Shown: positions 11,482 to 39,247 of the stretch, piece after piece | How the letters are laid out: every line of letters starts with the position of its first letter | Position numbering within the stretch: the first letter of the stretch is position 1 | Origin: Escherichia coli | Lineage (GTDB): Bacteria; Pseudomonadota; Gammaproteobacteria; Enterobacterales; Enterobacteriaceae | Length of the DNA stretch: 64,000 nt | Assembly (NCBI RefSeq): GCF_030384885.1 | Contig: NZ_CP128613.1 | Strand: one strand, 5' to 3' | Made by a program: the position numbers and the translations under genes | The notes under the pieces: model-generated | Database searches by the model: none | What the model saw: the letters and a program-made list of their open reading frames with translations, nothing else | Told to the model about the DNA's origin: nothing

Positions 11482-11904
11482 ATGAAGCGTTACACACCTG
11501 ACTTTCCTGAAATGATGCGCCTGTGCGAGATGAACTTTTCACAATTGCGGCGTTTGTTACCGCGCAATGACGCACCCGGCGAAACTATAAGCTATCAGGT
11601 GGCAAACGCACAATATCGGCTAACGATTGTGGAATCGACCCGATACACTACCCTGGTGACAATCGAACAGACTGCGCCCGCGATCAGTTACTGGAGCCTT
11701 CCGTCAATGACGGTGCGTCTGTATCATGACGCGATGGTGGCTGAAGTGTGTTCAAGTCAGCAGATTTTTCGCTTCAAAGCGCGGTATGATTATCCTAATA
11801 AAAAGTTGCATCAACGCGACGAAAAGCATCAAATTAACCAGTTTTTAGCGGACTGGTTGCGATACTGTTTAGCACATGGAGCGATGGCGATTCCGGTTTA
11901 TTAG
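11482..11904 (+). CDS. yqiB: DUF1249 protein YqiB
   Basis: 140 aa; synteny in the nudF-yqiB-cpdA-yqiA-parE operon. Confidence 0.88.
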
Positions 11905-15305: not shown

Positions 15306-15620
15306 TTAAATCCCTGGCTGCAGAATACGAATATTCATCTCCAGCACGTCGCCTTTTACGGCTTCGCTGTACGCCTTCATGTGCGGGGTTTGCAGGTGCG
15401 CTTCAAGGTGCGCGATGCTTTCCCACTGCTCAATCATCACGATAGAATCCGGTGCCATAGACTGGAAACTCACGCCAGCAGCGCAATCCACCATTGGCGC
15501 ATAGCCGTGGCAACCTTCTTCTTTCAGTACGGTTGGAACGATTTTAGCAAACTGATCCAACACTGCCTGACGGTGATGTTGACCAGGACGAGTACGGATT
15601 TCTGCGATTACTGTAATCAT
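15306..15620 (-). CDS. ygiN: Quinol monooxygenase YgiN (ABM domain)
   Basis: 104 aa; synteny with mdaB. Confidence 0.9.
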   Translation of the reverse strand: MITVIAEIRTRPGQHHRQAVLDQFAKIVPTVLKEEGCHGYAPMVDCAAGVSFQSMAPDSIVMIEQWESIAHLEAHLQTPHMKAYSEAVKGDVLEMNIRILQPGI

Positions 15621-15650
15621 GGTTAACTCCTTCTAAAGCCAGAGCTCTAG

Positions 15651-16232
15651 TTAACCAAAAATTTCCACAAGATGCTTGCGATATTCTTCAGTATAGCGGG
15701 GAACATCAGGCATTTTTATCACGTCATTAGCGATAAATGTCGGCAGCGGCTCCATACCAAGGAATTGGTTTGCTTTATGGAATGGTAGATACACACCGTC
15801 AACGCCAACCCCGTGGAAGAACTGATCTTTTTCGGTGAAAGCTTCCATTGGTGCGTTCCAGGTCAGTGAAAGCATATATTTTTTGCCCTGTACCAGGCCG
15901 CCGGAACCGTATTTTTTTGATGGATCTTTGCGGGTACGACCATCGCTGGCATACAGAGTCCCGTGACCTTCGGTGAATACATCATCAATATATTTTTTCA
16001 CTGTCCACGGCGCGCCCATCCACCAGCCTGGCATCTGCCAGATCACCACATCAGCCCAGAGAAAGTTTTGTACTTCCGCTTTGACATCGTAGTCGCTGTC
16101 GGCGCGAACGATGCGGACATCATGCCCGAGGTCGCGCAGTGTGCCATCCGCGACTTCGGTCAGGGTGTCGTTCAGTTGACCATTGGAGTGGGCGAATTTT
16201 TTCGCGCCGTTGATAATCAGGATGTTGCTCAT
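15651..16232 (-). CDS. mdaB: NADPH:quinone oxidoreductase MdaB
   Basis: 193 aa, MSNILIINGAKKFAHSNGQLN...; flavodoxin-like fold family. Confidence 0.93.
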   Translation of the reverse strand: MSNILIINGAKKFAHSNGQLNDTLTEVADGTLRDLGHDVRIVRADSDYDVKAEVQNFLWADVVIWQMPGWWMGAPWTVKKYIDDVFTEGHGTLYASDGRTRKDPSKKYGSGGLVQGKKYMLSLTWNAPMEAFTEKDQFFHGVGVDGVYLPFHKANQFLGMEPLPTFIANDVIKMPDVPRYTEEYRKHLVEIFG

Positions 16233-16548
16233 TTTTTAACCTCAAGGTGAGACGTTTGCCGACTATAGTACGTCACAGAGCGGTACGGTGAAATTAGCAA
16301 AATGTGCAAAGTCTTTTGCGAATTTAGCAAAAGTCTGATCTTGCTCCGATTCACCGATGCAGGATAAATATTTTCTGAAAATGACAATACTGATAGCCAT
16401 TCCTCATAATTCCTACTCGCACCGGATTAATTTACAGGTTTGGTTCGGTTTTTTGGGGATTAAAAATATGGCGTTGGATAAGTAAAAATGAAAATATCAA
16501 CGCGTCACGTTGATAATTATAAATGGATTTTTATGAGCGTGCTAACAT

Positions 16549-16881
16549 ATGTTAAAGCATAAAATTCAAACAATATTTGAAGCTCTGTTATATATAATGC
16601 TTACTTATTGGTTAATAGATGCTTTTTTTGCATTCAATAAGTATGACTGGATGCTTGAGTCGGGAGACAATATTTGCAGTACACCTTCCGTTTCAGGCGA
16701 AGATCGTATATTGCAAACAATGATTGCAGCATTTTTTCTTCTGACGCCACTTATTATTATTATCTTAAGAAAACTCTTTGTGCGAGAAATGTTTGAGTTT
16801 TGGTTATATGTAATCTCGCTCGTTATTTGTTTGGTTTGTGGTTGGTGGCTTTTTTGGGGACGGTTTATATTTTGCTATTAA
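16549..16881 (+). CDS. ygiZ: Inner membrane protein YgiZ
   Basis: 110 aa, hydrophobic, AT-rich gene between mdaB and qseC. Confidence 0.8.
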   Translation: MLKHKIQTIFEALLYIMLTYWLIDAFFAFNKYDWMLESGDNICSTPSVSGEDRILQTMIAAFFLLTPLIIIILRKLFVREMFEFWLYVISLVICLVCGWWLFWGRFIFCY

Positions 16882-16926
16882 TAAAATCTATGAGAGTCGT
16901 TTTAACGGCTCTCATAGACAGAGAAG

Positions 16927-18276
16927 TTACCAGCTTACTTTCGCCTCAAATCCACCTTGTTCCGCATTCCCAAACTCAACATTCATGCCATGCAGCTTGG
17001 CGATTCGCTGGACAATTGAAAGCCCAAGTCCACTGCCGGTAGCGGTTTGTCCGGGTGGGCGATAGAAGCGTTCGCCAATTCTCGCCAGTGCCTCTGGTGT
17101 CACTCCGGGGCCGTTATCCCTCACGATGAAATTATCGGCATTCAGCGTGACGTCCACCACGCTACCTTGTGGACTGTAGCGCACGGCGTTATCCAGCAAA
17201 TTTCGCACCAACAAACTTAGCAATAGCGGTTGTCCGGTGCGTTTGATGCCGTGGGCATTGAGTGTCAGTCGCACGTCAATTTTCGCCTGCTGCGCCGTGT
17301 GGTAAATATCCATCACCGACGATTGCAGGAGATCTTCAAGCGGGATCTCCGCGACGTCCTGAAGGTTATCCAGTGAGTCCAGCCGCGATAGCGTGAGCAG
17401 TTGATCAACCAGACGAGTAGCACGATCGATTCCGGAATGTAATTGAAGCAGCGCTTTTTTCCGCGCCTGCGGATCATCGTCAGAGAGCTGCGCAACTTCG
17501 GTTTGCACTTTCAGCGCCGTTAACGGGCTACGAAGTTCGTGAGCTGCGTCGGAGGTAAAGCGTCGTTCACGAACCATCATCGCATGTGTGCGGGCGAACA
17601 GTTGATTCAACGACTCAACCAGTGGACGCACTTCGCTGGGTACGCCCGTCGCGTTTAGTGGTTTTTCCGAGTCAGGGTCACGCATACGTAGTGCCAGCGC
17701 CAGTTTGTTCAGCGGCGCGAGTTCACGACCCAGTAGTACCATCATGATGATTAACATAATCGGCAGTGCGACAAGCCACGGGATCAATTGCCCGGCAACA
17801 ATCGCCAGCGCCATGTCTTCACGGTATTCCCATTCCTGACCAACAACGATGCGATATTTGCCATCTGGTGAGGTCATCCAGACAAAACGCCAGGGATCGT
17901 CTTCACCGACCAGTTGCCCGTCAGCAAAACCTTCCCGCTGATAGCTATAAGGAATATCTTCTCCGTTATCGCCATCGTTAAGGACCATTCTGCCGTCGTG
18001 GGTAAAGATGGCAAAGGTCAGCGCATCGTCATCAACATGACCGTGTTTTAATTTATTTGGCGTCTGTGCCATGCGATCCGCCGCGTTGATTTCGTTGAGA
18101 TCCAGCGTACTTAACCGTTTGGCAAACAGCATCAGTTGGGTGTCGAACAACTCATCGACGTTATCCGTTGTTTGTTTCCAGGCGACAAAGCTGGAAAGCA
18201 GCCAGGTCACCGAGGCCAGAATTAAAAAGATTAGCGTCAGCCTGACTCGCAGACTAAGACGTTGGGTAAATTTCAT
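16927..18276 (-). CDS. qseC: Sensor histidine kinase QseC
   Basis: 449 aa; HAMP domain, H-box (AAHELRSPL) and HATPase domain; overlaps the qseB stop. Confidence 0.94.
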
Positions 18277-20011: not shown

Positions 20012-20119
20012 TGAAGAATCTTTACCGGAGTGTGAGCCAAATCACTCGCGATAAGTTTGAGCGAACAATGCCACAGGCGTATTGTTGTTGGGCTTATAAT
20101 TTCTCCGGTAAGGAATACC

Positions 20120-21864: not shown

Positions 21865-24123
21865 ATGAGCGATATGGCAGAGCGCCTTGCGCTACATGAA
21901 TTTACGGAAAACGCCTACTTAAACTACTCCATGTACGTAATCATGGACCGTGCGTTGCCGTTTATTGGTGATGGTCTGAAACCTGTTCAGCGCCGCATTG
22001 TGTATGCGATGTCTGAACTGGGACTAAATGCCAGCGCCAAATTTAAAAAATCGGCCCGTACCGTCGGTGACGTACTGGGTAAATACCATCCGCACGGTGA
22101 TAGCGCCTGTTATGAAGCGATGGTCCTGATGGCACAGCCGTTCTCTTACCGTTATCCGCTGGTTGATGGTCAGGGGAACTGGGGCGCACCGGACGATCCG
22201 AAATCGTTCGCGGCGATGCGTTACACCGAATCCCGGTTGTCGAAATATTCCGAGCTGCTATTGAGCGAGCTGGGGCAGGGTACGGCTGACTGGGTGCCAA
22301 ACTTCGACGGTACTTTGCAGGAGCCGAAAATGCTACCTGCCCGTTTGCCGAACATTTTGCTTAACGGCACCACCGGTATTGCCGTCGGTATGGCGACCGA
22401 TATTCCACCGCATAACCTGCGTGAAGTGGCTCAGGCAGCAATCGCGTTAATCGACCAGCCGAAAACCACGCTCGACCAGCTGCTGGATATCGTGCAGGGG
22501 CCGGATTATCCGACCGAAGCGGAAATCATCACCTCGCGTGCCGAGATCCGTAAAATCTACGAAAATGGTCGCGGTTCTGTGCGTATGCGCGCGGTGTGGA
22601 AGAAAGAAGACGGTGCGGTGGTTATCAGCGCATTGCCGCATCAGGTTTCTGGTGCGCGCGTACTGGAGCAAATTGCTGCGCAAATGCGCAACAAAAAGCT
22701 GCCGATGGTTGACGATCTGCGCGATGAGTCTGACCACGAGAACCCGACCCGTCTGGTGATTGTGCCGCGTTCCAACCGCGTGGATATGGATCAGGTGATG
22801 AATCACCTTTTCGCCACCACCGATCTGGAAAAGAGCTATCGTATTAACCTTAATATGATCGGTCTGGATGGCCGTCCGGCGGTGAAAAACCTGCTGGAAA
22901 TCCTCTCCGAATGGCTGGTGTTCCGCCGCGATACCGTACGCCGCCGACTGAACTATCGTCTGGAGAAAGTCCTCAAGCGCCTGCATATCCTCGAAGGTTT
23001 GCTGGTGGCGTTTCTCAATATCGACGAAGTGATTGAGATCATTCGCAATGAAGATGAACCGAAACCGGCGCTGATGTCGCGGTTTGGCCTCACGGAAACT
23101 CAGGCGGAAGCGATCCTCGAACTGAAACTGCGTCATCTCGCCAAACTGGAAGAGATGAAGATTCGCGGTGAGCAGAGTGAGCTGGAAAAAGAGCGCGACC
23201 AGTTGCAAGGCATTCTGGCGTCCGAGCGTAAAATGAATAACCTGCTGAAGAAAGAACTGCAGGCAGACGCGCAAGCCTATGGTGACGATCGTCGTTCGCC
23301 GTTGCAGGAACGCGAAGAAGCGAAAGCGATGAGCGAGCACGACATGCTGCCGTCGGAACCCGTCACCATTGTGCTGTCGCAGATGGGCTGGGTACGCAGC
23401 GCTAAAGGCCATGACATCGACGCGCCGGGCCTGAATTATAAAGCGGGTGATAGCTTCAAAGCGGCGGTGAAAGGCAAGAGTAACCAACCGGTAGTGTTTG
23501 TTGATTCCACCGGTCGTAGCTATGCCATCGACCCGATTACGCTGCCGTCGGCGCGTGGTCAGGGCGAACCGCTCACCGGCAAATTAACGTTGCCGCCTGG
23601 GGCGACCGTTGACCATATGCTGATGGAAAGCGACGATCAGAAACTGCTGATGGCTTCCGATGCGGGTTACGGTTTCGTCTGTACCTTTAACGATCTGGTG
23701 GCGCGTAACCGTGCCGGTAAGGCTTTGATCACCTTACCGGAAAATGCCCATGTTATGCCGCCGGTGGTGATTGAAGATGCTTCCGATATGCTGCTGGCAA
23801 TCACTCAGGCAGGCCGTATGTTGATGTTCCCGGTAAGCGATCTGCCGCAGCTGTCGAAGGGCAAAGGCAACAAGATTATCAACATTCCGTCGGCAGAAGC
23901 CGCGCGTGGCGAGGATGGTCTGGCGCAACTGTACGTTCTGCCGCCGCAAAGCACGCTGACCATTCATGTTGGGAAACGCAAAATTAAACTGCGTCCGGAA
24001 GAGCTACAGAAAGTCACTGGCGAACGTGGACGCCGCGGTACGTTGATGCGCGGTTTGCAGCGTATCGATCGAGTCGAGATCGACTCTCCTCGCCGCGCCA
24101 GCAGCGGCGATAGCGAAGAGTAG
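21865..24123 (+). CDS. parC: DNA topoisomerase IV subunit A ParC
   Basis: 752 aa; GyrA/ParC N-terminal domain motifs. Confidence 0.96.
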
Positions 24124-25168: not shown

Positions 25169-26581
25169 ATGTCACTCAGTCGGCGTCAGTTCATTCAGGC
25201 ATCGGGGATTGCACTTTGTGCAGGCGCTGTTCCCCTGAAGGCCAGCGCAGCCGGGCAACAGCAACCGCTACCCGTTCCGCCGCTGCTTGAATCTCGCCGT
25301 GGGCAACCGCTGTTTATGACTGTACAACGTGCGCACTGGTCATTTACGCCAGGAACGCGCGCATCGGTCTGGGGAATCAATGGTCGTTACCTGGGGCCGA
25401 CTATCCGCGTCTGGAAGGGCGATGATGTTAAGCTGATCTACAGTAACCGCCTGACAGAAAATGTCTCAATGACGGTGTCTGGTTTACAGGTGCCTGGCCC
25501 GCTGATGGGCGGTCCGGCACGGATGATGTCGCCAAACGCTGACTGGGCACCCGTATTACCCATTCGCCAGAACGCAGCGACATTGTGGTATCACGCTAAT
25601 ACCCCCAATCGCACGGCTCAGCAGGTCTATAATGGCCTTGCCGGAATGTGGCTGGTGGAAGATGAAGTCAGCAAGTCGCTGCCTATCCCCAACCATTATG
25701 GTGTGGATGATTTTCCGGTCATTATCCAGGATAAACGGCTGGATAACTTTGGTACGCCAGAATACAACGAACCGGGAAGCGGCGGCTTTGTTGGAGATAC
25801 GCTGCTGGTCAACGGTGTACAAAGCCCGTACGTTGAAGTCTCGCGTGGCTGGGTGCGCTTGCGACTGCTGAACGCGTCGAACTCTCGTCGCTATCAACTG
25901 CAGATGAGCGATGGTCGCCCGTTACATGTGATTTCTGGCGATCAGGGATTCTTGCCTGCTCCTGTATCGGTGAAGCAACTTTCGCTGGCACCGGGCGAGC
26001 GCCGCGAGATTCTGGTGGATATGAGCAACGGTGATGAAGTGTCGATCACCTGTGGCGAAGCGGCGAGCATTGTTGATCGTATTCGTGGCTTCTTTGAGCC
26101 ATCCAGCATTCTGGTTTCTACGCTGGTGCTCACGTTGCGCCCTACCGGGCTACTGCCGCTGGTTACTGACAGCCTGCCGATGCGCCTGCTGCCAACTGAA
26201 ATTATGGCCGGTTCGCCGATTCGCAGTCGCGATATCAGTCTGGGTGATGACCCGGGTATCAATGGGCAGCTGTGGGACGTCAACCGTATTGATGTCACCG
26301 CGCAGCAAGGAACGTGGGAACGCTGGACGGTACGCGCGGACGAGCCGCAAGCGTTCCATATTGAAGGCGTGATGTTCCAGATCCGTAACGTGAATGGCGC
26401 GATGCCGTTCCCGGAAGACAGAGGCTGGAAAGATACCGTTTGGGTTGACGGACAAGTGGAGCTGCTTGTTTATTTCGGTCAGCCTTCCTGGGCGCACTTT
26501 CCGTTCTACTTCAACAGTCAGACGCTGGAAATGGCGGACCGTGGCTCGATTGGGCAACTGTTGGTCAATCCGGTACCGTAA
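25169..26581 (+). CDS. ftsP: Cell division protein FtsP (SufI), multicopper-oxidase fold, Tat-exported
   Basis: 470 aa; twin-arginine signal SRRQFIQASGIALCAGA. Confidence 0.95.
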   Translation: MSLSRRQFIQASGIALCAGAVPLKASAAGQQQPLPVPPLLESRRGQPLFMTVQRAHWSFTPGTRASVWGINGRYLGPTIRVWKGDDVKLIYSNRLTENVSMTVSGLQVPGPLMGGPARMMSPNADWAPVLPIRQNAATLWYHANTPNRTAQQVYNGLAGMWLVEDEVSKSLPIPNHYGVDDFPVIIQDKRLDNFGTPEYNEPGSGGFVGDTLLVNGVQSPYVEVSRGWVRLRLLNASNSRRYQLQMSDGRPLHVISGDQGFLPAPVSVKQLSLAPGERREILVDMSNGDEVSITCGEAASIVDRIRGFFEPSSILVSTLVLTLRPTGLLPLVTDSLPMRLLPTEIMAGSPIRSRDISLGDDPGINGQLWDVNRIDVTAQQGTWERWTVRADEPQAFHIEGVMFQIRNVNGAMPFPEDRGWKDTVWVDGQVELLVYFGQPSWAHFPFYFNSQTLEMADRGSIGQLLVNPVP

Positions 26582-26631
26582 TGGACCAATTCAATGCCCC
26601 ACAGAGTGGTGGGGCGATACAAGGATGAATC

Positions 26632-28056
26632 ATGGATGGCATGGGATGGATGATTATTTTGGTACTTCCCTTTCTTTGGATGGGCTATGGACTGGCGTTG
26701 TTAATCATAACGGGGTGCGCTTTTGAATCTAAGAGGATTCGTCGCGTTCTGCTATGGGGTGTTGCGCCCCAGTTTATTATTCTTTGTATTACGACCTTAT
26801 TGCTTTATTGGATTAACTCTCGGTTAATTTATGTTTTTGTCTTTTTTCAGCCGGTTTTATGCATCACTACGGCAATTTTTTTGTTTGCTGGTAAAAAAAC
26901 ACAATATTCCAGATTGCTGTTTACTCTGTCTCATGTGATTTTTCTCGCTGGAGTTTTATATCAGGGGCATAGGGAAAATCTGCAACACATAATTAATAGC
27001 GACTGGAAGGAATATAAAATAACGCGTTTATTTGAGCAAGTGCAGGACAATGGAGCGCATGCGCTGAATAACGATGTAACTTGTTCAGAATTAATGCAAC
27101 TACTCACCCTGGCAGCGGAACGTGATGACGTCAAAGAAGAGACGTTACGTACTCTTATTGCAAAGAGAGTATCGCCATTTCTGACAATGTCAGATAACTG
27201 TACGGGTGAGGATTCAGTAGAGATTTATTCTGTAGATACTACACCTTTTATGGCGGCTATTCAGAATCATAATATACATTCTGTTCGTTTTTTTAGTCAA
27301 TTGCTTATGGGAAACTCACCAAAAGCAAAAAATAATCGTGACATTGTGCGCCGGGCAAACCCTTTGATCGAAGTGTATAAATATAGTCATGGTTCAAAAA
27401 AACAACGTAACTCAGGGTTAGAAATAAGTAAGCAATTAATCGCTATTATGCCAGAACTATTAACAGATGCCGTCTGGCGTGCCGTGCTCAATGTATATGA
27501 TGCCGATGCAGCACGATGGTTCTGGCGTAAGCAACCACCAGAAAATCGGTTGTATCGCTTAAAGGCTATGGCATTAATACCACAAACAGATGCGCTGTTG
27601 GCAGAGATTCGACATACTCCAGAGGTACTGAATATCTCGTCTGAGGGGGACCTGAATGAAGAGGAGTTTCTCCATTTCTTAATTTATGGAGGAGATACCG
27701 CTGTAATACATGCACTGGTTGAAAAAGGAATAGTTAACTGGCAGCACCTTATGAACATTGAGGGGTTTGATAAGGACCCCTTAATATGGTCTATTTCAAA
27801 ACTGGGAGAAAACGACAATGACCGGGAGGTTTTGGCATTAATTATTCATGATATTAATGCGCAAAACGCACTGCCGGAGGAACGCATTGCCAAATATTTA
27901 ACGTGGACGGGAGCAATGGGCGAGATTTTTTTAAAGGCGGGCGTACATTGTGATAAGTTATATGCGGCAATTGAGTCCGACAAAAAGCGAAATAATGGCA
28001 TGTATAGTCAAAACGCCAGGGAAGAAGTGGATCGCGTATGTACGCCCACAAAATAG
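26632..28056 (+). CDS. Accessory membrane-anchored ankyrin-repeat protein (about 4 N-terminal TM helices plus a roughly 370-aa soluble domain); function unknown
   Basis: 474-aa ORF; RBS aagga 6 nt upstream of the ATG. Hydrophobic segments at roughly residues 6-30, 39-62, 65-86 and 95-110. C-terminal ankyrin-like repeats (EFLHFLIYGGDTAVIHALVEKGIVNWQ; DPLIWSISKLGEN...VLALIIHDINAQNA). Markedly AT-rich by eye. Not part of the K-12 ftsP-ygiQ junction as I recall it. Confidence 0.75.
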   Translation: MDGMGWMIILVLPFLWMGYGLALLIITGCAFESKRIRRVLLWGVAPQFIILCITTLLLYWINSRLIYVFVFFQPVLCITTAIFLFAGKKTQYSRLLFTLSHVIFLAGVLYQGHRENLQHIINSDWKEYKITRLFEQVQDNGAHALNNDVTCSELMQLLTLAAERDDVKEETLRTLIAKRVSPFLTMSDNCTGEDSVEIYSVDTTPFMAAIQNHNIHSVRFFSQLLMGNSPKAKNNRDIVRRANPLIEVYKYSHGSKKQRNSGLEISKQLIAIMPELLTDAVWRAVLNVYDADAARWFWRKQPPENRLYRLKAMALIPQTDALLAEIRHTPEVLNISSEGDLNEEEFLHFLIYGGDTAVIHALVEKGIVNWQHLMNIEGFDKDPLIWSISKLGENDNDREVLALIIHDINAQNALPEERIAKYLTWTGAMGEIFLKAGVHCDKLYAAIESDKKRNNGMYSQNAREEVDRVCTPTK

Positions 28057-28185
28057 GAGCAGTTTGGGGCGGTTAAGGGATAAAAAATAAATGCCTTTCG
28101 CTATCTGTCAGGGCGAATCTCACCATTTGCTATACCTTCCATTGGCGATGAACAGTATTCTACCCGCACTTTTTTTACGATTGCG

Positions 28186-28992
28186 TTGAAGCATTACAAC
28201 GCCCGCGCCATCCGCGCGTTTAGCCGCTTTCTGCAAGGAAATTCCTCAAAAGCGCAGGAATATCGCGCGATTGTTCATCAAAAAAATCCACTGCAGCAGA
28301 TGTACCGGGGAATAAGTTTGCCAATTCGTTTTAGTGAAGAAGAGATCGCCCGCCACATTGTTGCCGCTCGCGAGATAAGCCTCACCTTGCTGCCCCTGAT
28401 GCCAGAATTATTAAACGAAGAGGCGTATGCAAATGTCATTGATGCTAATGACAGCGCAACGCTGAAGGCTTTTTGGCAGATCCAGCTGCCGCCCACGCCG
28501 GTTTTACGCCTGGAAGCGATGTCGGTAATTCCCATGACAGCGGCACTGGTTCAACAGGTGAGGGAGTCACCAAAGCGGCTTGAACTGGAAGATAAAAGTG
28601 GCAGGACAGTACTAACTTACATCGTGCGCTTTGGGAATATTGCCGCAGTACAGGCACTGATTGACGCTAATCTGATCGACTGGCAACGGCTCCGCCAATC
28701 GACAGGAAGGTCAACACCATTATTACTGGCGATCTGGCGACAAAAATACGACGATGATTATGTAATCTTCCCATTGATTTTAAAGGACATGCTGGCAAAA
28801 AATGCGCCACCCTCAGCAGAGGAAATAATGAACTGCATTAAGGATGGTATGACCGCAGATGATTTTTTATCTGCCGGAATGAGCAACACGCAATTCTGTT
28901 CTGCGATTGAACAAAGCCTCCAGGCGAAAACGTCAGTATTACCGGCGAATCGATTACGCCATCTGCAATCCTCGCGGTGTGCAAAGCTGTAA
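28186..28992 (+). CDS. 5'-truncated paralog of the preceding ankyrin-repeat protein (soluble domain only); may be a gene remnant or pseudogene
   Basis: 268-aa ORF starting at a TTG with no obvious RBS. Aligns along its whole length to residues about 205-460 of the upstream protein (RAFSRFLQGNSSKAQ vs RFFSQLLMGNSPKAK; VLRLEAMSVIPMTAALVQQVRESPK vs RLYRLKAMALIPQTDALLAEIRHTPE; GRTVLTYIVRFGNIAAVQALIDANLIDWQ vs EEFLHFLIYGGDTAVIHALVEKGIVNWQ). In-frame homology continues upstream of the TTG back to a stop at about 28081. Confidence 0.55.
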   Translation: MKHYNARAIRAFSRFLQGNSSKAQEYRAIVHQKNPLQQMYRGISLPIRFSEEEIARHIVAAREISLTLLPLMPELLNEEAYANVIDANDSATLKAFWQIQLPPTPVLRLEAMSVIPMTAALVQQVRESPKRLELEDKSGRTVLTYIVRFGNIAAVQALIDANLIDWQRLRQSTGRSTPLLLAIWRQKYDDDYVIFPLILKDMLAKNAPPSAEEIMNCIKDGMTADDFLSAGMSNTQFCSAIEQSLQAKTSVLPANRLRHLQSSRCAKL

Positions 28993-29107
28993 CCAACCGG
29001 AAGTTAAGTCATCCGCTGAAAACATCGCATTAACTTTTCGATTTCTCTTTCGTTCCGGCTTATAATCCCCGGCCTTTGATTATTTTTTTATCATTTCTGG
29101 AAGCAAA

Positions 29108-31327
29108 ATGAGCTCTATCTCCCTGATCCAACCGGATCGCGACCTGTTCTCCTGGCCGCAGTACTGGGCCGCCTGTTTTGGACCGGCACCGTTTTTGCCG
29201 ATGTCTCGTGAAGAGATGGATCAACTTGGCTGGGATAGCTGCGACATCATTTTGGTTACTGGCGACGCGTATGTCGATCACCCAAGCTTCGGGATGGCGA
29301 TTTGCGGTCGTATGCTTGAAGCGCAGGGCTTTCGCGTCGGGATCATCGCCCAGCCAGACTGGAGCAGCAAAGACGATTTCATGCGTCTGGGTAAACCGAA
29401 TCTGTTTTTCGGTGTTACTGCTGGCAACATGGACTCGATGATCAACCGCTATACCGCCGATCGCCGTTTACGTCATGACGATGCCTACACACCGGATAAC
29501 GTCGCGGGTAAGCGCCCGGATCGCGCCACCCTGGTTTATACCCAACGCTGTAAAGAGGCGTGGAAAGATGTGCCGGTGATCCTCGGCGGTATTGAGGCTA
29601 GTTTGCGTCGTACCGCGCATTATGATTACTGGTCTGATACCGTGCGCCGTTCCGTGCTGGTGGATTCCAAAGCCGACATGCTGATGTTCGGTAACGGTGA
29701 GCGTCCGCTGGTGGAAGTGGCGCATCGTCTGGCGATGGGTGAGCCGATTAGTGAAATCCGCGATGTGCGTAATACCGCGATTATCGTAAAAGAGGCGTTG
29801 CCAGGCTGGAGCGGTGTGGATTCCACCCGTCTTGATACTCCTGGGAAAATCGACCCGATCCCGCATCCGTATGGTGAAGATTTGCCGTGCGCGGATAACA
29901 AACCGGTGGCCCCGAAAAAGCAGGAAGCGAAAGCCGTAACCGTGCAGCCACCGCGCCCGAAACCGTGGGAAAAAACTTACGTATTGCTGCCTTCTTTCGA
30001 GAAAGTGAAGGGCGATAAAGTGCTGTACGCTCATGCTTCGCGTATTCTGCACCATGAAACCAACCCAGGCTGCGCGCGTGCGCTGATGCAAAAACATGGC
30101 GACCGCTATGTATGGATCAACCCGCCTGCCATCCCGCTTTCTACCGAAGAGATGGACAGCGTCTTTGCGCTGCCGTACAAGCGCGTGCCGCATCCGGCTT
30201 ACGGTAATGCCCGAATTCCGGCTTACGAAATGATCCGTTTCTCGGTCAACATTATGCGCGGCTGCTTTGGCGGCTGCTCTTTCTGCTCTATTACCGAGCA
30301 TGAAGGTCGCATTATTCAGAGCCGTTCGGAAGATTCGATCATCAACGAGATTGAAGCGATCCGCGACACCGTGCCAGGCTTTACGGGCGTGATTTCCGAT
30401 CTCGGTGGGCCAACTGCCAACATGTATATGTTGCGCTGCAAATCGCCGCGCGCCGAGCAGACTTGCCGCCGTTTATCGTGCGTTTACCCGGATATTTGTC
30501 CTCATATGGACACTAACCACGAACCGACGATCAACCTCTATCGCCGCGCGCGTGATCTGAAAGGCATTAAAAAGATCCTCATCGCTTCCGGCGTGCGTTA
30601 TGACATCGCCGTGGAAGATCCGCGCTATATCAAAGAGCTGGCGACCCATCACGTTGGCGGTTATCTGAAGATTGCCCCGGAACATACCGAAGAAGGGCCG
30701 TTATCGAAGATGATGAAGCCGGGCATGGGCAGCTATGACCGCTTTAAAGAGCTGTTCGATACTTACTCGAAACAGGCAGGTAAAGAGCAATATCTGATCC
30801 CGTATTTCATCTCCGCACACCCCGGTACGCGTGATGAAGATATGGTGAATCTGGCGCTGTGGCTGAAAAAGCATCGCTTCCGTCTCGACCAGGTACAGAA
30901 CTTCTACCCGTCGCCGTTGGCTAACTCCACCACCATGTATTACACCGGGAAAAACCCGCTGGCGAAGATTGGTTACAAGAGTGAAGACGTCTTCGTACCG
31001 AAGGGCGACAAACAGCGTCGTTTGCATAAAGCGTTGTTGCGTTACCACGATCCGGCAAACTGGCCGTTAATCCGTCAGGCGCTGGAAGCGATGGGTAAAA
31101 AGCATCTGATTGGCAGCCGTCGTGATTGCTTAGTGCCTGCGCCAACCATTGAAGAGATGCGCGAAGCCCGCCGTCAGAACCGCAATACCCGTCCGGCGTT
31201 GACTAAACATACGCCGATGGCGACCCAGCGTCAGACACCTGCTACGGCAAAAAAAGCGTCGTCTACGCCATCTCGCCCGGTGAATGCTGGCGCGAAGAAA
31301 CGCCCTAAAGCGGTGGCAGGTCGTTAA
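29108..31327 (+). CDS. ygiQ: Radical SAM protein YgiQ (UPF0313 family)
   Basis: 739 aa; Cys motif CFGGCSFCS; basic, Pro/Ala-rich C-terminal tail. Confidence 0.93.
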
Positions 31328-31365: not shown

Positions 31366-31596
31366 TTATAACCTTGGTTTATAAGGACTGTTACGAACGT
31401 CTAAGCGGTAATGCGCTCTTGCTGTTTCGTCTTTAACTTGCTGAATTTCCGGACGCAGGGCGTCAATATCCTGTTGCAGTTGATTAATTTTGTTATTCAA
31501 TGCCTGAATATCATGTTCCAGGTGTTCAATTTTGGCATTGCTGGTACAGCCAGCAAGACACAGCGCCAGCGGAATGGATAAGATAAGTTTGTTCAT
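31366..31596 (-). CDS. Lpp-family small outer-membrane lipoprotein paralog (about 76 aa)
   Basis: Internal Met of ORF 31366..31647 gives MNKLILSIPLALCLAGC (lipobox) followed by a coiled-coil region resembling Lpp and YqhH (AKIEHLEHDIQALNNKINQLQQDIDALRPEIQQVKDE). Confidence 0.7.
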   Translation of the reverse strand: MNKLILSIPLALCLAGCTSNAKIEHLEHDIQALNNKINQLQQDIDALRPEIQQVKDETARAHYRLDVRNSPYKPRL

Positions 31597-31613: not shown

Positions 31614-31871
31614 TCATTCCGCATACATACGTAAGCAGCGCAGGCAATCGAAATAGTCCTGGGCGTCAAGGCGCGTATTGGCTCTGTTAGCTTCGGATTT
31701 TGCCGCATAGATTTGCGGGCGTAATGCTTTCATATCCTGCTCAAGTCGGGCAATTTTGGCATTTAACGTCTGTACGTTGCTCGCCAGCTGATTGACCTTT
31801 TGCTCATTGACGCAGCCGCTGAGCAAGCAGGTTGCCAGAACAACAGCCCCCACGGTGAAAATCGTTTTCAT
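31614..31871 (-). CDS. yqhH: Lpp-family lipoprotein YqhH
   Basis: 85 aa, [20 protein letters not shown] lipobox; coiled-coil Lpp-like sequence. Confidence 0.88.
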
Positions 31872-35279: not shown

Positions 35280-36236
35280 ATGCGACAAAATTGCGCACAA
35301 TCAAATTGCCGCATTATTCCTAAGAAATTACGCGATATGAAACGTGAAGAGATTTGCCGCTTGCTGGCGGGTAAAGTTAATAAACTGAAAAATAAAGAAA
35401 ATAGTTTATCAGAGCTATTGCCCGATGTGCGTTTGTTGTATGGCGAGACGCCTTTCGCACGTACGCCGGTGATGTACGAGCCTGGCATCATAATTCTCTT
35501 TTCTGGGCATAAAATCGGTTATATCAATGAACGCGTGTTTCGTTATGATGCAAATGAATATCTGCTGCTGACGGTGCCGTTGCCGTTTGAGTGCGAAACT
35601 TATGCCACGTCAGAGGTACCGCTGGCAGGGTTGCGTCTCAATGTCGATGTTTTGCAGTTACAAGAGCTGTTGATGGACATTGGCGAAGATGAGCATTTTC
35701 GGCCGTCGATGGCAGCCAGCGGGATTAACTCTGCCACGTTATCAGAAGAGATTTTATGTGCGGCGGAGCGGTTACTCGATGTGATGGAGCGACCGCTGGA
35801 TGCGCGTATTCTCGGCAAACAGATCATCCGCGAAATTCTGTACTACGTGCTGACCGGACCTTGCGGTGGCGCGTTACTGGCGCTGGTCAGCCGTCAGACT
35901 CACTTCAGCCTGATTAGTCGTGTGCTGAAACGAATTGAGAATAAATACACCGAAAACCTGAGCGTCGAGCAACTGGCGGCAGAAGCCAACATGAGCGTAT
36001 CGGCGTTCCACCATAATTTTAAGTCTGTCACTAGCACCTCGCCGTTGCAGTATTTGAAGAATTACCGTCTGCATAAGGCGCGGATGATGATTATCCACGA
36101 CGGCATGAAGGCCAGTGCAGCAGCGATGCGCGTCGGCTACGAAAGCGCGTCGCAATTTAGCCGTGAGTTTAAACGTTACTTTGGTGTGACACCGGGGGAG
36201 GATGCGGCAAGAATGCGGGCGATGCAGGGGAGTTAA
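35280..36236 (+). CDS. yqhC: AraC-family transcriptional activator YqhC
   Basis: 318 aa from the internal Met; C-terminal AraC helix-turn-helix; divergent from yqhD. Confidence 0.9.
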
Positions 36237-36275
36237 ATGCGTTCCCGGTACCGCAACCGGGAACGGGGGAAATTG

Positions 36276-36935
36276 TCAGGCGTTACAGTATTTCTTTTTA
36301 ATCACCACAAACAGCGTGCCTAACAAGCCTGCAGTTAACAAGGCAATCGGCAGGATCATCAGGAATGTCATTACCTGATCTTCATGCCGTTTAACGAACG
36401 GAATCATGCTTAAGGCATAGCCGAAACTGGTTACTACGCTGACCCACAGCAATCCGCTTAGCCAGTTGAAAAACTGGAAGCGGCGGTTTGGCAGACCGGA
36501 AATACCCGCCATGGTTGGCAACAGCGTACGGACAAATGCGAGAAAACGTCCAGCCAGCAGCGCCAGCAGACCGTGACGGTCAAACATACAGGTAGCACGC
36601 TGGTGATATTTGGCAGGAAGCTGTGCCAGCCAGCCTTTCACCGTTTTAGTATTCCCTAACCAGCGCCCCTGAATATAACTTAACCAGCAGCCCAAACTTG
36701 CTGCGGCGGTCAGGATCGCAATCGTTGGCAGAAAATCCATAACCCCCTGGGCAATCAATGCGCCTGCCAGTATCAACAAGCTGTCGCCTGGCAAAAATGA
36801 GGCGGGCAGCAGGCCGTTTTCTAAAAACAGCGTGGCAAACATGACAAAGTAAACAACGCTAACAATATGAGGATCCGCCAGCGCGGCAAAGTCGTGTTGC
36901 CAGAGCGCAGCGATGATATCTTGAATAACAGCCAT
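36276..36935 (-). CDS. yghB: DedA-family inner membrane protein YghB
   Basis: 219 aa, multi-TM; synteny. Confidence 0.9.
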
Positions 36936-37073
36936 GGACTTTCCTGTGGAACAGCGTTTAAGCCTTTATCTGCCTATTGTACTCCTGAATCACCCGGGAC
37001 GCCTTGATCCCGGACGCAACAATTTAAGACTTTTCACAATTAAATGTCTGCAAATTTGTCCAAACTGGCAACA

Positions 37074-38261
37074 TTACACAATTCGCGCAAAACCGGCGTC
37101 CAGATCGGCAATCAAATCATCGACATCTTCCAGACCAATATGCAGGCGAATCAAGGTCCCGCTAAAATCGATCTCGCCTTGCGGGCGAATGGCGGCGATA
37201 TGTTCTGGTTGATTTGCCAGGATCAACGATTCATACCCGCCCCACGAGTAGGCCATGCTGAATAAACTGTAGTTATCCAGATAGTTCGCCAGCTCTTCAT
37301 CATTGAGTTTTTTCTTAAGCACAAAGGAAAATAGCCCGCTGCTACCTGTAAAGTCTCGTTGCCAGAATTCGTGACCTTTACTGCCAGGCAGAGCAGGGTG
37401 GTTAACTCGCGCTACTTGCGGATGTTCCGCCAGCCATTCAGCTACTTTCAGGCTACTTTCGTGATGTTGACGCAGGCGAACACCCAAAGTGCGCAGGCCA
37501 CGACTGGTTATATAGGCGGTATCGGCATCGACCATCTGCCCCATCAGATAGGCATTCTCCCGTAGCTGCTCCCAGCAACGGGCATTGCATACGGCAGTAC
37601 CAATCATCGCATCTGAATGCCCAACCAGATATTTAGTAGCGGCCTGAATGGAAACATCAATGCCAAAATCCAGCGCCTTAAACAGCACGCCGGCCGCCCA
37701 GGTGTTATCGATCATAATGATGGCATCTGGCACTACACTGCGCACGGCGGCAACAATCGCCGGAACGTCGTGGACTTCCATGGTGATGGAGCCCGGCGAT
37801 TCCAGAAATACAATTTTAGTGTTTGGCTGTAGATGTTTAACAATATTCGCGCCAATCAGCGGATCAAACCACGATGTCGTTACGCCCAGTTTGCTGAGGA
37901 TTTTGCTACAGAAATCCTGACTCGGTTCATAGGCGGTGTTGGTCATCAACACATGATCGCCCTGTTTGACAAAAGCAAGAATGGAATTAGCAACCGCTGC
38001 TGCTCCGCAGGGGAACAGCACGCAGCCTGCGCCACCTTCCAGTTCGCACATCGCTTCTTGTAAGGAGAAATGGGTTAACGTTCCACGCCGTCCATAAAAC
38101 AACTCGCCATTGGCGCGATTGCGTGTCGCGTGTTTTTTGGCTTCCACACTGTCAAAGACCAGCGAAGACGCGCGCTGAATCACGCTATTTACCGCGCCGA
38201 GAGTGTATTTTTTGCTGCGTCCTGCGTTGACCAGTTGAGTATCAAGCTTGTTTTCCGCCAT
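37074..38261 (-). CDS. metC: Cystathionine beta-lyase MetC
   Basis: 395 aa from the internal Met ([15 protein letters not shown]...); PLP-dependent Cys/Met metabolism family. Confidence 0.94.
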
Positions 38262-38512: not shown

Positions 38513-39247
38513 GTGGGTAATAATTTAATGCAGACGGACCTTTCCGTCTGGGGTATGTATCAGCACGCCGATATTGTCGTTAAGTGCGTGATGATTGGGC
38601 TTATTTTGGCCTCCGTAGTCACTTGGGCAATCTTCTTCAGTAAGAGCGTTGAGTTCTTCAATCAGAAGCGTCGTCTTAAGCGCGAGCAGCAACTGCTGGC
38701 TGAAGCGCGTTCCTTAAACCAGGCCAACGATATCGCTGCTGATTTTGGTAGCAAAAGCTTGAGCCTGCATTTGCTCAATGAAGCGCAGAATGAGCTGGAA
38801 CTGTCAGAAGGCAGCGACGATAACGAAGGTATTAAAGAACGTACCAGCTTCCGTCTGGAGCGTCGGGTCGCCGCCGTGGGGCGTCAAATGGGCCGCGGTA
38901 ACGGCTACCTTGCAACCATCGGCGCGATTTCGCCGTTTGTGGGCCTCTTTGGTACGGTCTGGGGCATCATGAACAGCTTTATCGGTATTGCGCAAACGCA
39001 GACCACTAATCTGGCTGTCGTTGCGCCGGGTATCGCAGAAGCTCTGTTAGCAACGGCAATCGGCCTCGTGGCAGCGATTCCTGCGGTCGTTATCTATAAC
39101 GTATTTGCACGCCAGATTGGCGGCTTTAAAGCGATGCTGGGTGATGTCGCAGCGCAGGTATTATTGCTGCAAAGTCGTGACCTGGATCTGGAAGCCAGCG
39201 CCGCTGCGCATCCGGTTCGTGTCGCCCAAAAATTACGCGCAGGATAA
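38513..39247 (+). CDS. exbB: TonB-system proton channel ExbB
   Basis: 244 aa, MGNNLMQTDLSVWGMYQHADIVVK...; MotA/TolQ/ExbB family. Confidence 0.95.
   Translation: MGNNLMQTDLSVWGMYQHADIVVKCVMIGLILASVVTWAIFFSKSVEFFNQKRRLKREQQLLAEARSLNQANDIAADFGSKSLSLHLLNEAQNELELSEGSDDNEGIKERTSFRLERRVAAVGRQMGRGNGYLATIGAISPFVGLFGTVWGIMNSFIGIAQTQTTNLAVVAPGIAEALLATAIGLVAAIPAVVIYNVFARQIGGFKAMLGDVAAQVLLLQSRDLDLEASAAAHPVRVAQKLRAG

Follow-up and report, generated by a model that had tools for sequence, protein, structure and literature searches.

A predicted membrane-anchored, periplasm-facing ankyrin-type protein family in the ftsP–ygiQ gap of Enterobacteriaceae

A tandem gene pair between ftsP and ygiQ

The window analyzed here, a stretch of 64,000 nucleotides from Escherichia coli, carries an accessory segment between the core genes ftsP and ygiQ. 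According to the ORF list and the RefSeq annotation, this segment contains two paralogs, an intact gene A and a remnant of gene B, and no other gene. Flank identities were taken from RefSeq record NZ_CP027579.1, which is 100% identical to the window, and segment boundaries from a junction alignment with the K-12-type strain RP437. The features of the locus are as follows:

25169–26581, + strand: ftsP, core gene and upstream flank; the segment starts straight after its stop codon (RefSeq annotation, RP437 junction alignment)
about 26582–29035, + strand: accessory segment, ~2,454 bp (RP437 junction alignment)
26595–26616, + strand: hairpin between ftsP and gene A, 8-bp stem, UGCCCCAC-AGAGUG-GUGGGGCG (RNA fold)
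26621–26625, + strand: Shine-Dalgarno-like AAGGA, 6 nt before the gene A ATG (read from the sequence)
26632–28056, + strand: gene A, intact, ATG start, 474 aa (WP_000348903.1; UniProt A0A1Q6B411), annotated 'hypothetical'
26632–26967 (codons 1–112), + strand: predicted four-TM module of protein A, with an invariant Pro46-Gln47 (both residues kept in 18 of 19 family sequences) opening TM2 and basic loops 1-2 and 3-4 predicted to be cytoplasmic (hydropathy, AlphaFold helices, loop charges)
26968–28053 (codons 113–474), + strand: stalk helix and degenerate ankyrin-type solenoid of ~7–8 helix pairs, predicted periplasmic, with conserved C440 and C470
28084–28092, + strand: deletion junction (between about 28088 and 28089) with AAAAT microhomology, 518 bp lost (alignment with strain GF4-3)
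28089–28992, + strand: gene B remnant, tandem paralog of A, in a frame open from 28084
29108–31327, + strand: ygiQ, core gene and downstream flank (RefSeq annotation)

The ftsP–ygiQ gap is 110 nt long in K-12-type strains, and the junction alignment revealed that 38 nt of it, including a terminator-like hairpin, are swapped here for ~2,454 bp, with the insertion point at the first base past the ftsP stop codon. This confirms the proposal of a first-pass annotation, made by reading the sequence, that an accessory gene occupies this junction. The same annotation considered such proteins rare in E. coli, in agreement with our presence/absence check, in which the segment was found in 13 of 5,426 complete genomes and the gene was absent from >99% of the species. 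Among the carriers are isolates of commensal type that came from birds, cattle, and tableware. No integrase, tRNA target, or flanking direct or inverted repeats were found in the segment, which resembles neither a mobile element nor a classical genomic island, and no Rfam RNA family was detected in it. An IS1 in the segment of one carrier is secondary. Other strains have a TRAP-transporter island in this position, and the ftsP–ygiQ gap is a general cargo hotspot.

The 474-aa ORF with its own ribosome-binding site was recovered exactly as first described. Its GC content (0.411; GC3 0.385) is within the lowest 2.3% among 1,425-bp windows of the 64-kb sequence, and the AT-richness relative to the flanks previously judged by eye held when calculated (ftsP 0.564, GC3 0.601; ygiQ 0.549, GC3 0.616). 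Scanning of the 50-nt spacer between ftsP and gene A found neither a terminator-like nor a promoter-like site. Given that no U-tract lies 3′ of the spacer hairpin, whose folding is unexceptional (z = −1.56), this hairpin does not qualify as a canonical intrinsic terminator. Transcription of gene A probably comes from ftsP read-through, and we infer co-transcription of the two genes.

The first-pass annotation missed the paralogous remnant downstream: gene A is one half of a tandem pair. The 518-bp deletion took the ribosome-binding site, the start codon, and about 168 codons of gene B, including all four TM helices. What remains is 29% identical to residues 210–461 of A and covers positions 172–464 of the family HMM; its start is called at a TTG at 28186 in the ORF listing (268 aa) and at 28318 by PGAP (28318–28992, 224 aa, 'ankyrin repeat domain-containing protein'). 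Ten other carriers have a complete gene B of 469 aa, and the longer version of the segment occurs in 10/13; strain GF4-3 has an intact copy. The dN/dS of gene B is 0.15–0.29. Lacking TM helices and a signal peptide, the product of the remnant could not reach the periplasm and is probably non-functional.

Predicted topology and fold of protein A

Four N-terminal TM helices, about the number first suggested, are indicated by four hydrophobic peaks (residues ~6–30, 41–60, 66–85, and 96–110; KD15 1.7–2.0) and by four AlphaFold helices (4–30, 34–61, 66–85, and 91–114). TM4 is short in protein A (~16–18 residues) and falls below the 19-residue hydropathy threshold, but the four hydrophobic segments are conserved throughout the family, and in B the fourth is strongly hydrophobic. 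Summed over 21 relatives, K+R/D+E counts are 9/21 for the N-terminus, 56/5 for loop 1, 7/14 for loop 2, and 48/1 for loop 3, with the N-terminus and loop 2 net acidic. Cys470 is present in 18/18 full-length relatives, and its partner is at position 440 in 12 members, at 444 (one helical turn on) in five, and at 439 in one. Based on the positive-inside rule applied to these loop charges and on the conservation of the C-terminal cysteine pair, we predict an N-out/C-out topology that would place the ankyrin domain in the periplasm, where C440 and C470 probably form a disulfide. Inspection of a 587-aa Pseudocitrobacter member suggested an apparent second four-TM module, an even number of helices that would preserve this orientation. 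The four-TM module has no Pfam family (best match 7TMR-DISM_7TM, E = 0.14), and no lipobox was found at the N-terminus of protein A, which consists of the four-TM bundle.

Ankyrin-like repeats had been proposed at the end of the soluble domain; an ankyrin-type domain was indeed recovered, but the fold is predicted to span the whole soluble domain. By sequence, one repeat is clearly ankyrin, the most canonical being at about residues 345–378, while the remainder is not recognizable. Pfam Ank_2 did not significantly match protein A alone (E = 1.7) and matched paralog B at E = 3.5e-4; among 18 family members, only three had an Ank_2 match at E ≤ 0.1. A profile from an Escherichia-centered alignment matched KANK2 at E = 2.9e-4, and a wider-family profile did so only at E = 0.025. 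Multi-ankyrin proteins matched the Escherichia-centered profile at positions ~326–364, in up to 30 stretches. Visual inspection picked out TPLH-like motifs (TPF, NPL, and DPL) near residues 203, 243, and 382, at positions that are conserved (P182, P244, and P274). In the structure model, helix pairs are irregularly spaced, about 24–54 residues apart, and the fold search identified the soluble domain as a stacked helix-turn-helix solenoid. Searches with the full-length model retrieved generic alpha-solenoids (armadillo, importin, and ankyrin) at E > 1e-3 and TM-scores ≤ 0.33, and a clear ankyrin result emerged only once the TM bundle had been left out and the alignment made deeper. In contrast to canonical ankyrin domains such as those of IkBa, KANK, NOMPC, and DARPins, most repeats of protein A have lost the consensus and the 33-residue regularity, and the predicted periplasmic location and disulfide are likewise atypical.

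The earlier statement that no function has been described for this protein still holds. Protein A had no match in NCBIfam, PADLOC, or PHROGs, neither A nor full-length B matched PADLOC-DB 2.0 defense models at E ≤ 1, and no enzyme or defense family was found for A, nor any mention of the gene in the published literature.

Distribution and evolution of the family

Proteins of the same family and architecture include UniProt A0A1Q6B411 in E. coli, Q8Z3P5 and Q8Z3P6 in Salmonella Typhi, A0A5Y2RVQ2 in Salmonella subsp. salamae, WP_231826229/30 in Pseudocitrobacter, and WP_034830319 in Enterobacter cancerogenus; for these database relatives we found neither a name nor a Pfam or NCBIfam model, nor any published study. 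The family is confined to Enterobacteriaceae, and its usual home is the ftsP–ygiQ gap, on the ftsP strand. Highly diverged copies (17–41% identity) fill this gap in four or more named genera, the hosts including Escherichia, Salmonella subsp. salamae, Superficieibacter, Pseudocitrobacter, and one MAG. Across genera, the gap accounts for 9 of the 13 distinct genomic contexts, and members in S. enterica, Atlantibacter, and E. cancerogenus are at unrelated loci. Tandem copies and fragments recur across the family: Salmonella genes are split, and copies in other strains and species are frameshifted, IS-interrupted, split, or fragmentary. The conserved motifs and the cysteine pair are still present at 17–26% identity.

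In the carriers examined, gene A is unbroken, and it evolves under purifying selection. Its dN/dS against orthologs is 0.19–0.29, compared to ≤0.05 for the flanking genes, in comparisons that span E. coli, E. whittamii, and one 75%-identical relative and are all far below 1. Regional dN/dS values were 0.13–0.58, with no region exceeding 0.6, in a coarse analysis with too few sequences for site models. No region exceeded 1, and diversifying selection was not supported at this coarse regional resolution. The family evolves fast (dN/dS about 0.2–0.3), and its members have repeatedly been duplicated in tandem, have decayed, and have been lost.

Horizontal acquisition, as first proposed from base composition, was borne out in part. 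Strict vertical inheritance within Escherichia was rejected given the incongruence of dS values for A and B with those of their flanks: between E. coli and E. whittamii, dS was 0.20 for A and 0.36–0.54 for the flanks, while between strains GF4-3 and MOD1 it was 0.74 for B and 0.19–0.22 for the flanks. This incongruence makes some exchange of A and B by recombination likely. On the other hand, diverged relatives hold the same gap across genera, and the family looks like an old resident of this locus that was often lost and sometimes exchanged. We also considered whether the segment had been co-imported with divergent flanks by homologous recombination. The ftsP and ygiQ alleles of the window are rare, being matched at ≥99% identity by only 14 genomes for ftsP and 12 for ygiQ, and its ygiQ is only 90–95% identical to 3,340 genomes. 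However, control segments in parC and metC/yghB were equally rare, which indicates that the strain belongs to a rare lineage, and the closest relatives at these loci mostly have an empty site, leaving co-import unsupported.

Candidate roles of protein A

We propose that the gene A product is a polytopic inner-membrane protein with four TM helices and both termini outside, which would anchor in the periplasm an all-helical degenerate ankyrin solenoid of ~360 aa with a probably disulfide-bonded C-terminal cysteine pair. Given that protein A has no recognizable catalytic motif, it would most likely work by binding a protein of the periplasm or envelope stoichiometrically, and it is this binding function that we infer for the intact copy kept by a strain in which B is 5′-truncated. 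Taken as a whole, this reading of an Enterobacteriaceae family with an inner-membrane four-TM anchor and a periplasmic ankyrin binding module is one that we consider somewhat more probable than its alternatives combined.

The main rival is an accessory factor linked to FtsP or the divisome. FtsP is a Tat-exported periplasmic divisome protein, and the periplasmic ankyrin domain could bind it or another septal or envelope component, with the gene co-expressed with ftsP and its product serving as a lineage-specific modulator of division or envelope stress. This would be consistent with the position of the family gene, which in several genera follows ftsP directly and shares its strand, a mere 33–50 nt separating the two in E. 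coli, E. whittamii, one further contig (L005), and one MAG (L020), with the terminator-free ftsP–A spacer, and with the predicted periplasmic location of both proteins. We nevertheless regard it as unlikely. More than 99% of E. coli lack the gene, the S. enterica, Atlantibacter, and E. cancerogenus members are elsewhere in their genomes, and the hotspot accepts unrelated cargo such as the TRAP-transporter island. Moreover, FtsP is about 90–99% identical across hosts, while the ankyrin proteins share only 17–50% identity, which is not the pattern expected of a conserved protein's partner.

The opposite orientation, in which TM4, for instance, does not span the membrane and the ankyrin domain forms a membrane-tethered cytoplasmic scaffold, is improbable. 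Although bacterial ankyrin proteins are generally cytoplasmic or secreted effectors, and TM4 of A is short enough to fail the hydropathy threshold, four hydrophobic segments are conserved across the family, TM4 of B is strongly hydrophobic, the charge bias of loops 1 and 3 fits N-out/C-out, and the conserved cysteine pair fits an oxidizing compartment. We assign a similarly low probability to gene A being a decaying relic without current function that has merely not yet been broken. The truncation of B, the damaged copies elsewhere, the lack of the gene in nearly all E. coli, and a constraint 5–30 times looser than that of its neighbors would be expected of a relic, but the intact state and dN/dS of A and the persistence of motifs and cysteines in very distant members are not. 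Finally, a secreted eukaryote-targeting effector similar to the Ank proteins of Legionella, Coxiella, and Rickettsia, which the first-pass annotation had listed as an option given ankyrin repeats and a foreign-looking composition, is very improbable, since a polytopic protein with four conserved TM helices at its N-terminus cannot be a soluble translocated effector, the ankyrin domain is predicted to be periplasmic, no secretion-system genes were found within the 43 kb annotated around gene A, and carriers include the commensal-type isolates mentioned above.

For the preferred reading of a periplasmic binding module, our leading guess, a tentative one, is that protein A neutralizes a toxin acting in the periplasm in an immunity-like manner, the analogy being Tli of Enterobacter cloacae (ECL_01554; PDB 9CYS/7UBZ). 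Tli is a membrane-attached, periplasmic, all-helical protein with six ankyrin repeats that neutralizes the T6SS lipase Tle by binding alone, cupping the phospholipase. Protein A would share with it a membrane-attached periplasmic ankyrin solenoid, in its own case by prediction, and both come from the same bacterial family. However, Tli carries a signal peptide and is made as a lipoprotein, while protein A has a conserved four-TM anchor, and no specific similarity beyond generic ankyrin was found, Tli being absent from the listed matches of our family profile and fold searches. The tli gene adjoins its toxin gene tle within a T6SS setting, whereas in none of 13 distinct contexts did a toxin, T6SS, Rhs/CDI, or defense gene neighbor a family member. 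Secretion genes were not conserved neighbors either, no other partner gene was conserved, and neighbors without a Pfam match had no NCBIfam or PADLOC match. A role in a conflict system, another option of the first-pass annotation, is a candidate reading that these neighborhoods neither confirm nor refute. The coarse dN/dS analysis, with no diversifying selection, also argues against an immunity-like role. A defense, toxin, or phage origin was rejected, as A, B, and unannotated neighbors had no PADLOC, PHROGs, or NCBIfam match. A barstar-domain gene adjoins the E. cancerogenus copy, a single case.

Another comparison is AnkB of Pseudomonas aeruginosa, reportedly a periplasmic ankyrin-like protein required for optimal KatB catalase activity. 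AnkB is, like our prediction for protein A, an inner-membrane-anchored, periplasm-facing ankyrin protein that serves as an accessory binder of a periplasmic protein. Unlike protein A, it has only about 180 aa and one anchor at its N-terminus, and its gene shares a transcript with katB; no catalase gene was found near family members in the contexts examined.

A more speculative possibility is that these proteins form a new polytopic periplasm-facing ankyrin class in which the solenoid captures a periplasmic protein and the conserved four-TM module, with its invariant Pro-Gln in TM2, does more than anchor the protein. The target might then be a toxin or phage protein entering the cell or, alternatively, FtsP or another divisome component.

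Ankyrin repeats are among the most common protein-binding modules of eukaryotes, and bacterial ones are known mostly from secreted effectors. To our knowledge, periplasmic examples such as AnkB and Tli are few, each with a specific and interesting partner. The family defined here, with a predicted four-TM anchor, a predicted periplasmic degenerate ankyrin solenoid, and a probable disulfide, is left 'hypothetical' by standard annotation, with no Pfam or NCBIfam model. Since E. coli rarely carries the gene and can do without it, its practical impact is uncertain. The family's fast evolution, duplication, decay, and fixed address are typical of conflict or niche-specific envelope genes, and it keeps this address beside a cell-division gene in a set of species to which Salmonella Typhi and pathogenic lineages of E. 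coli belong. If the solenoid captures a toxin or phage protein, these would be chromosomal 'hard-wired' orphan immunity genes with birth-and-death turnover at the ftsP–ygiQ hotspot; if it captures FtsP or another divisome component, their products would modulate cell division in a lineage-specific way. In either case, this would be the first membrane-integral ankyrin protein of Enterobacteriaceae with a known function.

Gene A, its truncated paralog and the insertion site

The accessory gene between ftsP and ygiQ (gene A) was present as the first-pass annotation had described it, with an ATG start in the ORF listing, a length of 474 aa, and its own ribosome binding site (AAGGA, 6 nt 5' of the ATG). 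At 100% identity, the window matches the record of E. coli strain 2013C-4282 (NZ_CP027579.1), whose annotation gives the same flanking genes and lists gene A as 'hypothetical protein' WP_000348903.1.

Features of the ftsP-ygiQ region in the window
25169-26581, ftsP, upstream flank (RefSeq record NZ_CP027579.1)
26632-28056, plus strand, gene A (ORF listing; RefSeq record NZ_CP027579.1)
28084-28992, open frame directly downstream of gene A, gene B remnant, 29% identity to A
29108-31327, ygiQ, downstream flank (RefSeq record NZ_CP027579.1)

The junction had been described as short in K-12, and the gap indeed measures 110 nt in K-12-type strains. In the junction alignment, a 38-nt part of it that contains a terminator-like hairpin was replaced in the window by ~2,454 bp extending from the first base past the ftsP stop codon to near 29035; a search of this segment for an integrase, boundary repeats, and Rfam matches found none. 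Rarity was borne out, with 13 carriers among 5,426 complete E. coli genomes, as was AT-richness in the GC check: gene A had a GC of 0.411 and GC3 of 0.385, compared to 0.564 and 0.601 for ftsP and 0.549 and 0.616 for ygiQ. Its codon usage is atypical, and it falls in the lowest 2.3% by GC of equal-sized windows across the 64 kb. Two further low-GC patches (<0.44 in 1,425-bp windows) correspond to a chaperone-usher fimbrial operon with usher and fimbrial-like protein (~3200-6400) and to ygiN-mdaB-ygiZ (~15400-17200).

The open frame directly 3' of gene A had been overlooked. Its product shares 29% identity with residues 210-461 of protein A (E=1e-35) and gives the sole significant Pfam ankyrin match at the locus (Ank_2, E=3.5e-4), identifying it as the remnant of a tandem paralog, gene B. 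In ten of the 13 carriers, this stretch is 518 bases longer and gene B is full length, its 469-aa product having four transmembrane (TM) helices of its own. The window and two near-identical strains have undergone a deletion of 518 bp at an AAAAT microhomology (junction about 28088/28089) and have thereby lost the ribosome binding site, the start codon, and about 168 codons of gene B. The remnant is annotated by PGAP as a 224-aa 'ankyrin repeat domain-containing protein'; given that it has neither a membrane anchor nor a signal peptide, it is most likely non-functional.

Predicted fold and membrane orientation of protein A

Hydropathy and AlphaFold agreed on the four TM helices previously proposed, at residues about 4-30, 34-61, 66-85, and 91-114. 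Given that the full-length AlphaFold model matched only generic alpha-solenoids, we gathered distant relatives by exhaustive profile search, aligned 18 soluble domains, and modelled residues 113-474. The resulting model (pLDDT 86.4, pTM 0.82) was all-helical and consisted of a long stalk helix and, after it, about 7-8 helix pairs. While the first-pass annotation was right in recognizing ankyrin repeats at the end of the protein, it understated their extent, as the whole soluble domain is predicted from this model to be a degenerate ankyrin-type solenoid. The predicted model has the ankyrin fold; at the sequence level, the repeat at ~345-378 is the only clearly ankyrin one. At this repeat, the family profile matched multi-ankyrin giants, in as many as 30 stretches of one protein, and KANK domains (E=2.9e-4); Pfam made no call on A itself (E=1.7). 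Neither half of A matched enzyme, defence, or phage families.

Charged residues summed over 21 family members, by segment
N-terminus: Lys+Arg 9, Asp+Glu 21
Loop TM1-TM2: Lys+Arg 56, Asp+Glu 5
Loop TM2-TM3: Lys+Arg 7, Asp+Glu 14
Loop TM3-TM4: Lys+Arg 48, Asp+Glu 1

Under the positive-inside rule, these loop charges predict an N-out/C-out topology, which would place the ankyrin domain in the periplasm. Cys470 is invariant among full-length members, each of which has a single partner cysteine, located at 440 in 12 members, at 444 (one helical turn on) in 5, and at 439 in 1. This pattern is the one expected for a disulfide and, independently of the charges, agrees with the periplasmic orientation; the pair is predicted to form a conserved disulfide in an oxidising compartment. 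Pro46-Gln47, located where TM2 is predicted to begin on the cytoplasmic side, occurs in 18 of 19 members, which hints that the TM module might be more than a passive anchor. A 587-aa Pseudocitrobacter member seemingly has a second N-terminal four-TM module on sequence inspection, and, the extra helices being even in number, the predicted orientation would be preserved, a second independent point in its favor. This apparent duplicate also seems to have a second Pro-Gln motif.

Distribution and turnover of the family

A word-indexed search returned a handful of close relatives only, and the exhaustive profile search yielded about 20 full-length cluster representatives (460-590 aa), all from Enterobacteriaceae and all 'hypothetical'; a literature search found no paper naming any family accession. 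Hosts are Escherichia (coli, whittamii, albertii, sp.), several subspecies of Salmonella enterica, Pseudocitrobacter, Atlantibacter hermannii, Enterobacter cancerogenus, Superficieibacter, and Phytobacter, with Klebsiella more distant. In nine of 13 distinct genomic contexts, the family gene resides between ftsP and ygiQ, in the orientation of ftsP (E. coli, E. whittamii, Escherichia sp. MOD1, two MAGs, the L005 contig, Superficieibacter, Pseudocitrobacter, and S. enterica subsp. salamae), in several of them as little as 33-50 nt from the ftsP stop. The proteins at this site are 17-41% identical to A, compared to about 90-99% for FtsP across the same hosts. Solitary members elsewhere are flanked by IS elements in S. 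enterica, adjoin yhiN/pitA in Atlantibacter, and adjoin a barstar-domain gene in E. cancerogenus; they share no common neighbor, and unannotated neighbors had no NCBIfam or PADLOC match. In E. cancerogenus (locus L016, 8425-9460), the family gene is followed by the barstar-domain gene on the opposite strand and two small ORFs without family match. Barstar domains are of ribonuclease-inhibitor or immunity type, and this single case is the only hint of an immunity neighborhood.

Scanning every retrieved locus with the family HMM revealed recurrent tandem copies and fragments, such as A plus B, a 474 + 339 aa pair in a MAG, N-terminal fragments in Superficieibacter and locus L009, and a frameshifted B in L005. 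In Pseudocitrobacter corydidari (L015, 5178-8818), three tandem members of about 587-588, 472-476, and 123-132 aa occupy the ftsP-ygiQ gap and adjoin, on the other strand, genes for an HtpX-type M48 protease and a LemA-family protein. Salmonella genes are recurrently broken into a TM-only and a soluble piece (130 + 310 aa, P0024 clusters; S. Typhi pair Q8Z3P5/Q8Z3P6), a pattern suggestive of independent pseudogenisation, though the split might also be functional.

The ftsP-ygiQ gap is a general multi-cargo hotspot. In other E. coli strains, it holds a seven-gene TRAP-transporter/dehydrogenase island encoding DctPQM, an Ldh-family oxidoreductase, a Zn-alcohol dehydrogenase, a mannitol-dehydrogenase family protein, and a GntR regulator, which in one MAG occurs together with gene B.

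Location of the TRAP island
L017 (E. coli HCM-24C-3), 4326-11799, opposite strand
L009, 9447-16911, opposite strand

Downstream of ygiQ, the window has an additional gene for a small Lpp-like lipoprotein ('LPP leucine zipper domain-containing protein'; 31366-31596, minus strand), which forms a tandem with yqhH, an Lpp paralog (31614-31871, minus strand). This slot holds two LPP-domain genes in E. whittamii and other hypothetical genes in GF4-3 and HCM-24C-3, and yqhH directly follows ygiQ in LD91-1; the ygiQ-yqhH junction is thus another small site of variation. Elsewhere, the ygiV-ygiS gap is only 108 nt (20012-20119). In K-12, the mqsR-mqsA toxin-antitoxin pair lies between these genes, so it appears to be absent here. 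At 38513-39247, the RefSeq record pairs the gene name exbB with the product 'tol-pal system-associated acyl-CoA thioesterase', seemingly a mismatch in the annotation.

The host strain belongs to a rare E. coli lineage. In parC, ftsP, ygiQ, or metC/yghB (segments 21900-23900, 25169-26581, 29400-31300, and 36000-38000), identity of at least 99% was reached by only 1-14 of the 5,426 complete genomes, and 3,340 genomes were merely 90-95% identical in ygiQ. Co-import of the island with a divergent recombination tract was rejected, as the parC and metC/yghB controls were as rare as the ftsP and ygiQ alleles; it is also disfavored by the closest relatives at these loci being mostly empty-site.

dN/dS values of 0.19-0.29 for A and 0.15-0.29 for B indicate that both are under purifying selection, with constraint 5-30 times looser than for plsC, ftsP, and ygiQ (≤0.05); a regional scan found no protein region above 0.6. 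Between genera, dS was saturated in island genes and flanks alike, compatible with old common ancestry at the locus. Within Escherichia, island and flank dS disagreed in both directions (E. coli vs. E. whittamii, A 0.20 and flanks 0.36-0.54; GF4-3 vs. MOD1, B 0.74 and flanks 0.19-0.22), which suggests some exchange of cargo between lineages by recombination. Family genes usually lie 3-15 GC points under the adjacent ftsP, yet follow host GC; Escherichia A is the most AT-rich, and one MAG copy (L020) is host-like (0.590 vs. 0.616). Horizontal acquisition, as first proposed, is plausible for this E. coli lineage but not the whole story, given that diverged members hold the same gap across genera. 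The family is best summarized as an old, fast-evolving ftsP-ygiQ resident subject to birth-and-death, frequent loss, and occasional transfer.

Proposed function and known ankyrin systems

We lean slightly toward protein A being a binder of a periplasmic or envelope protein, with four TM helices anchoring an ankyrin-type solenoid that would sit in the periplasm and carry a C-terminal disulfide; a binding module is proposed because A has no catalytic signature. Transcription would probably occur by read-through from ftsP, since the 50-nt ftsP-A spacer contains no terminator-like or promoter-like site (a hairpin at 26595-26616 lacks a U-tract).

Two candidate ligands deserve serious attention. 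One is an exogenous periplasm-acting toxin, which would make A immunity-like, a tentative analogy that we regard as possible though rather doubtful. The precedent is Tli of Enterobacter cloacae, a periplasmic protein attached to the membrane; it has six ankyrin repeats and neutralises the T6SS lipase Tle by cupping it. An immunity-like role would fit the fast evolution, the tandem paralogs, the patchy distribution, and the pseudogenes; however, no toxin is linked, the anchor has four TM helices, and positive selection was not detected. The other candidate, FtsP or the divisome, is somewhat less likely still: conserved position and likely co-transcription fit, but the gene is dispensable, copies occur at other loci, the gap is a hotspot, and the family diverges extremely beside a conserved FtsP. 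A cytoplasmic ankyrin domain seems improbable, and so, equally, does a functionless relic. A secreted effector seems very unlikely.

Like Tli, A is by prediction a membrane-attached periplasmic ankyrin protein, as reportedly is AnkB, from the katB operon of P. aeruginosa. Given that their defining contextual features fail in A, which has neither the adjacent toxin gene and lipoprotein signal of Tli nor a katB operon, we do not file it with either type.

Gene A was already in databases as a hypothetical protein; new here are the definition of its family, the predicted periplasmic orientation and disulfide, the conservation of and turnover at the locus, and the recognition of the truncated paralog. 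Gene A is rare and dispensable in E. coli; its family is a clean, testable, and uncharacterised family of predicted envelope proteins.
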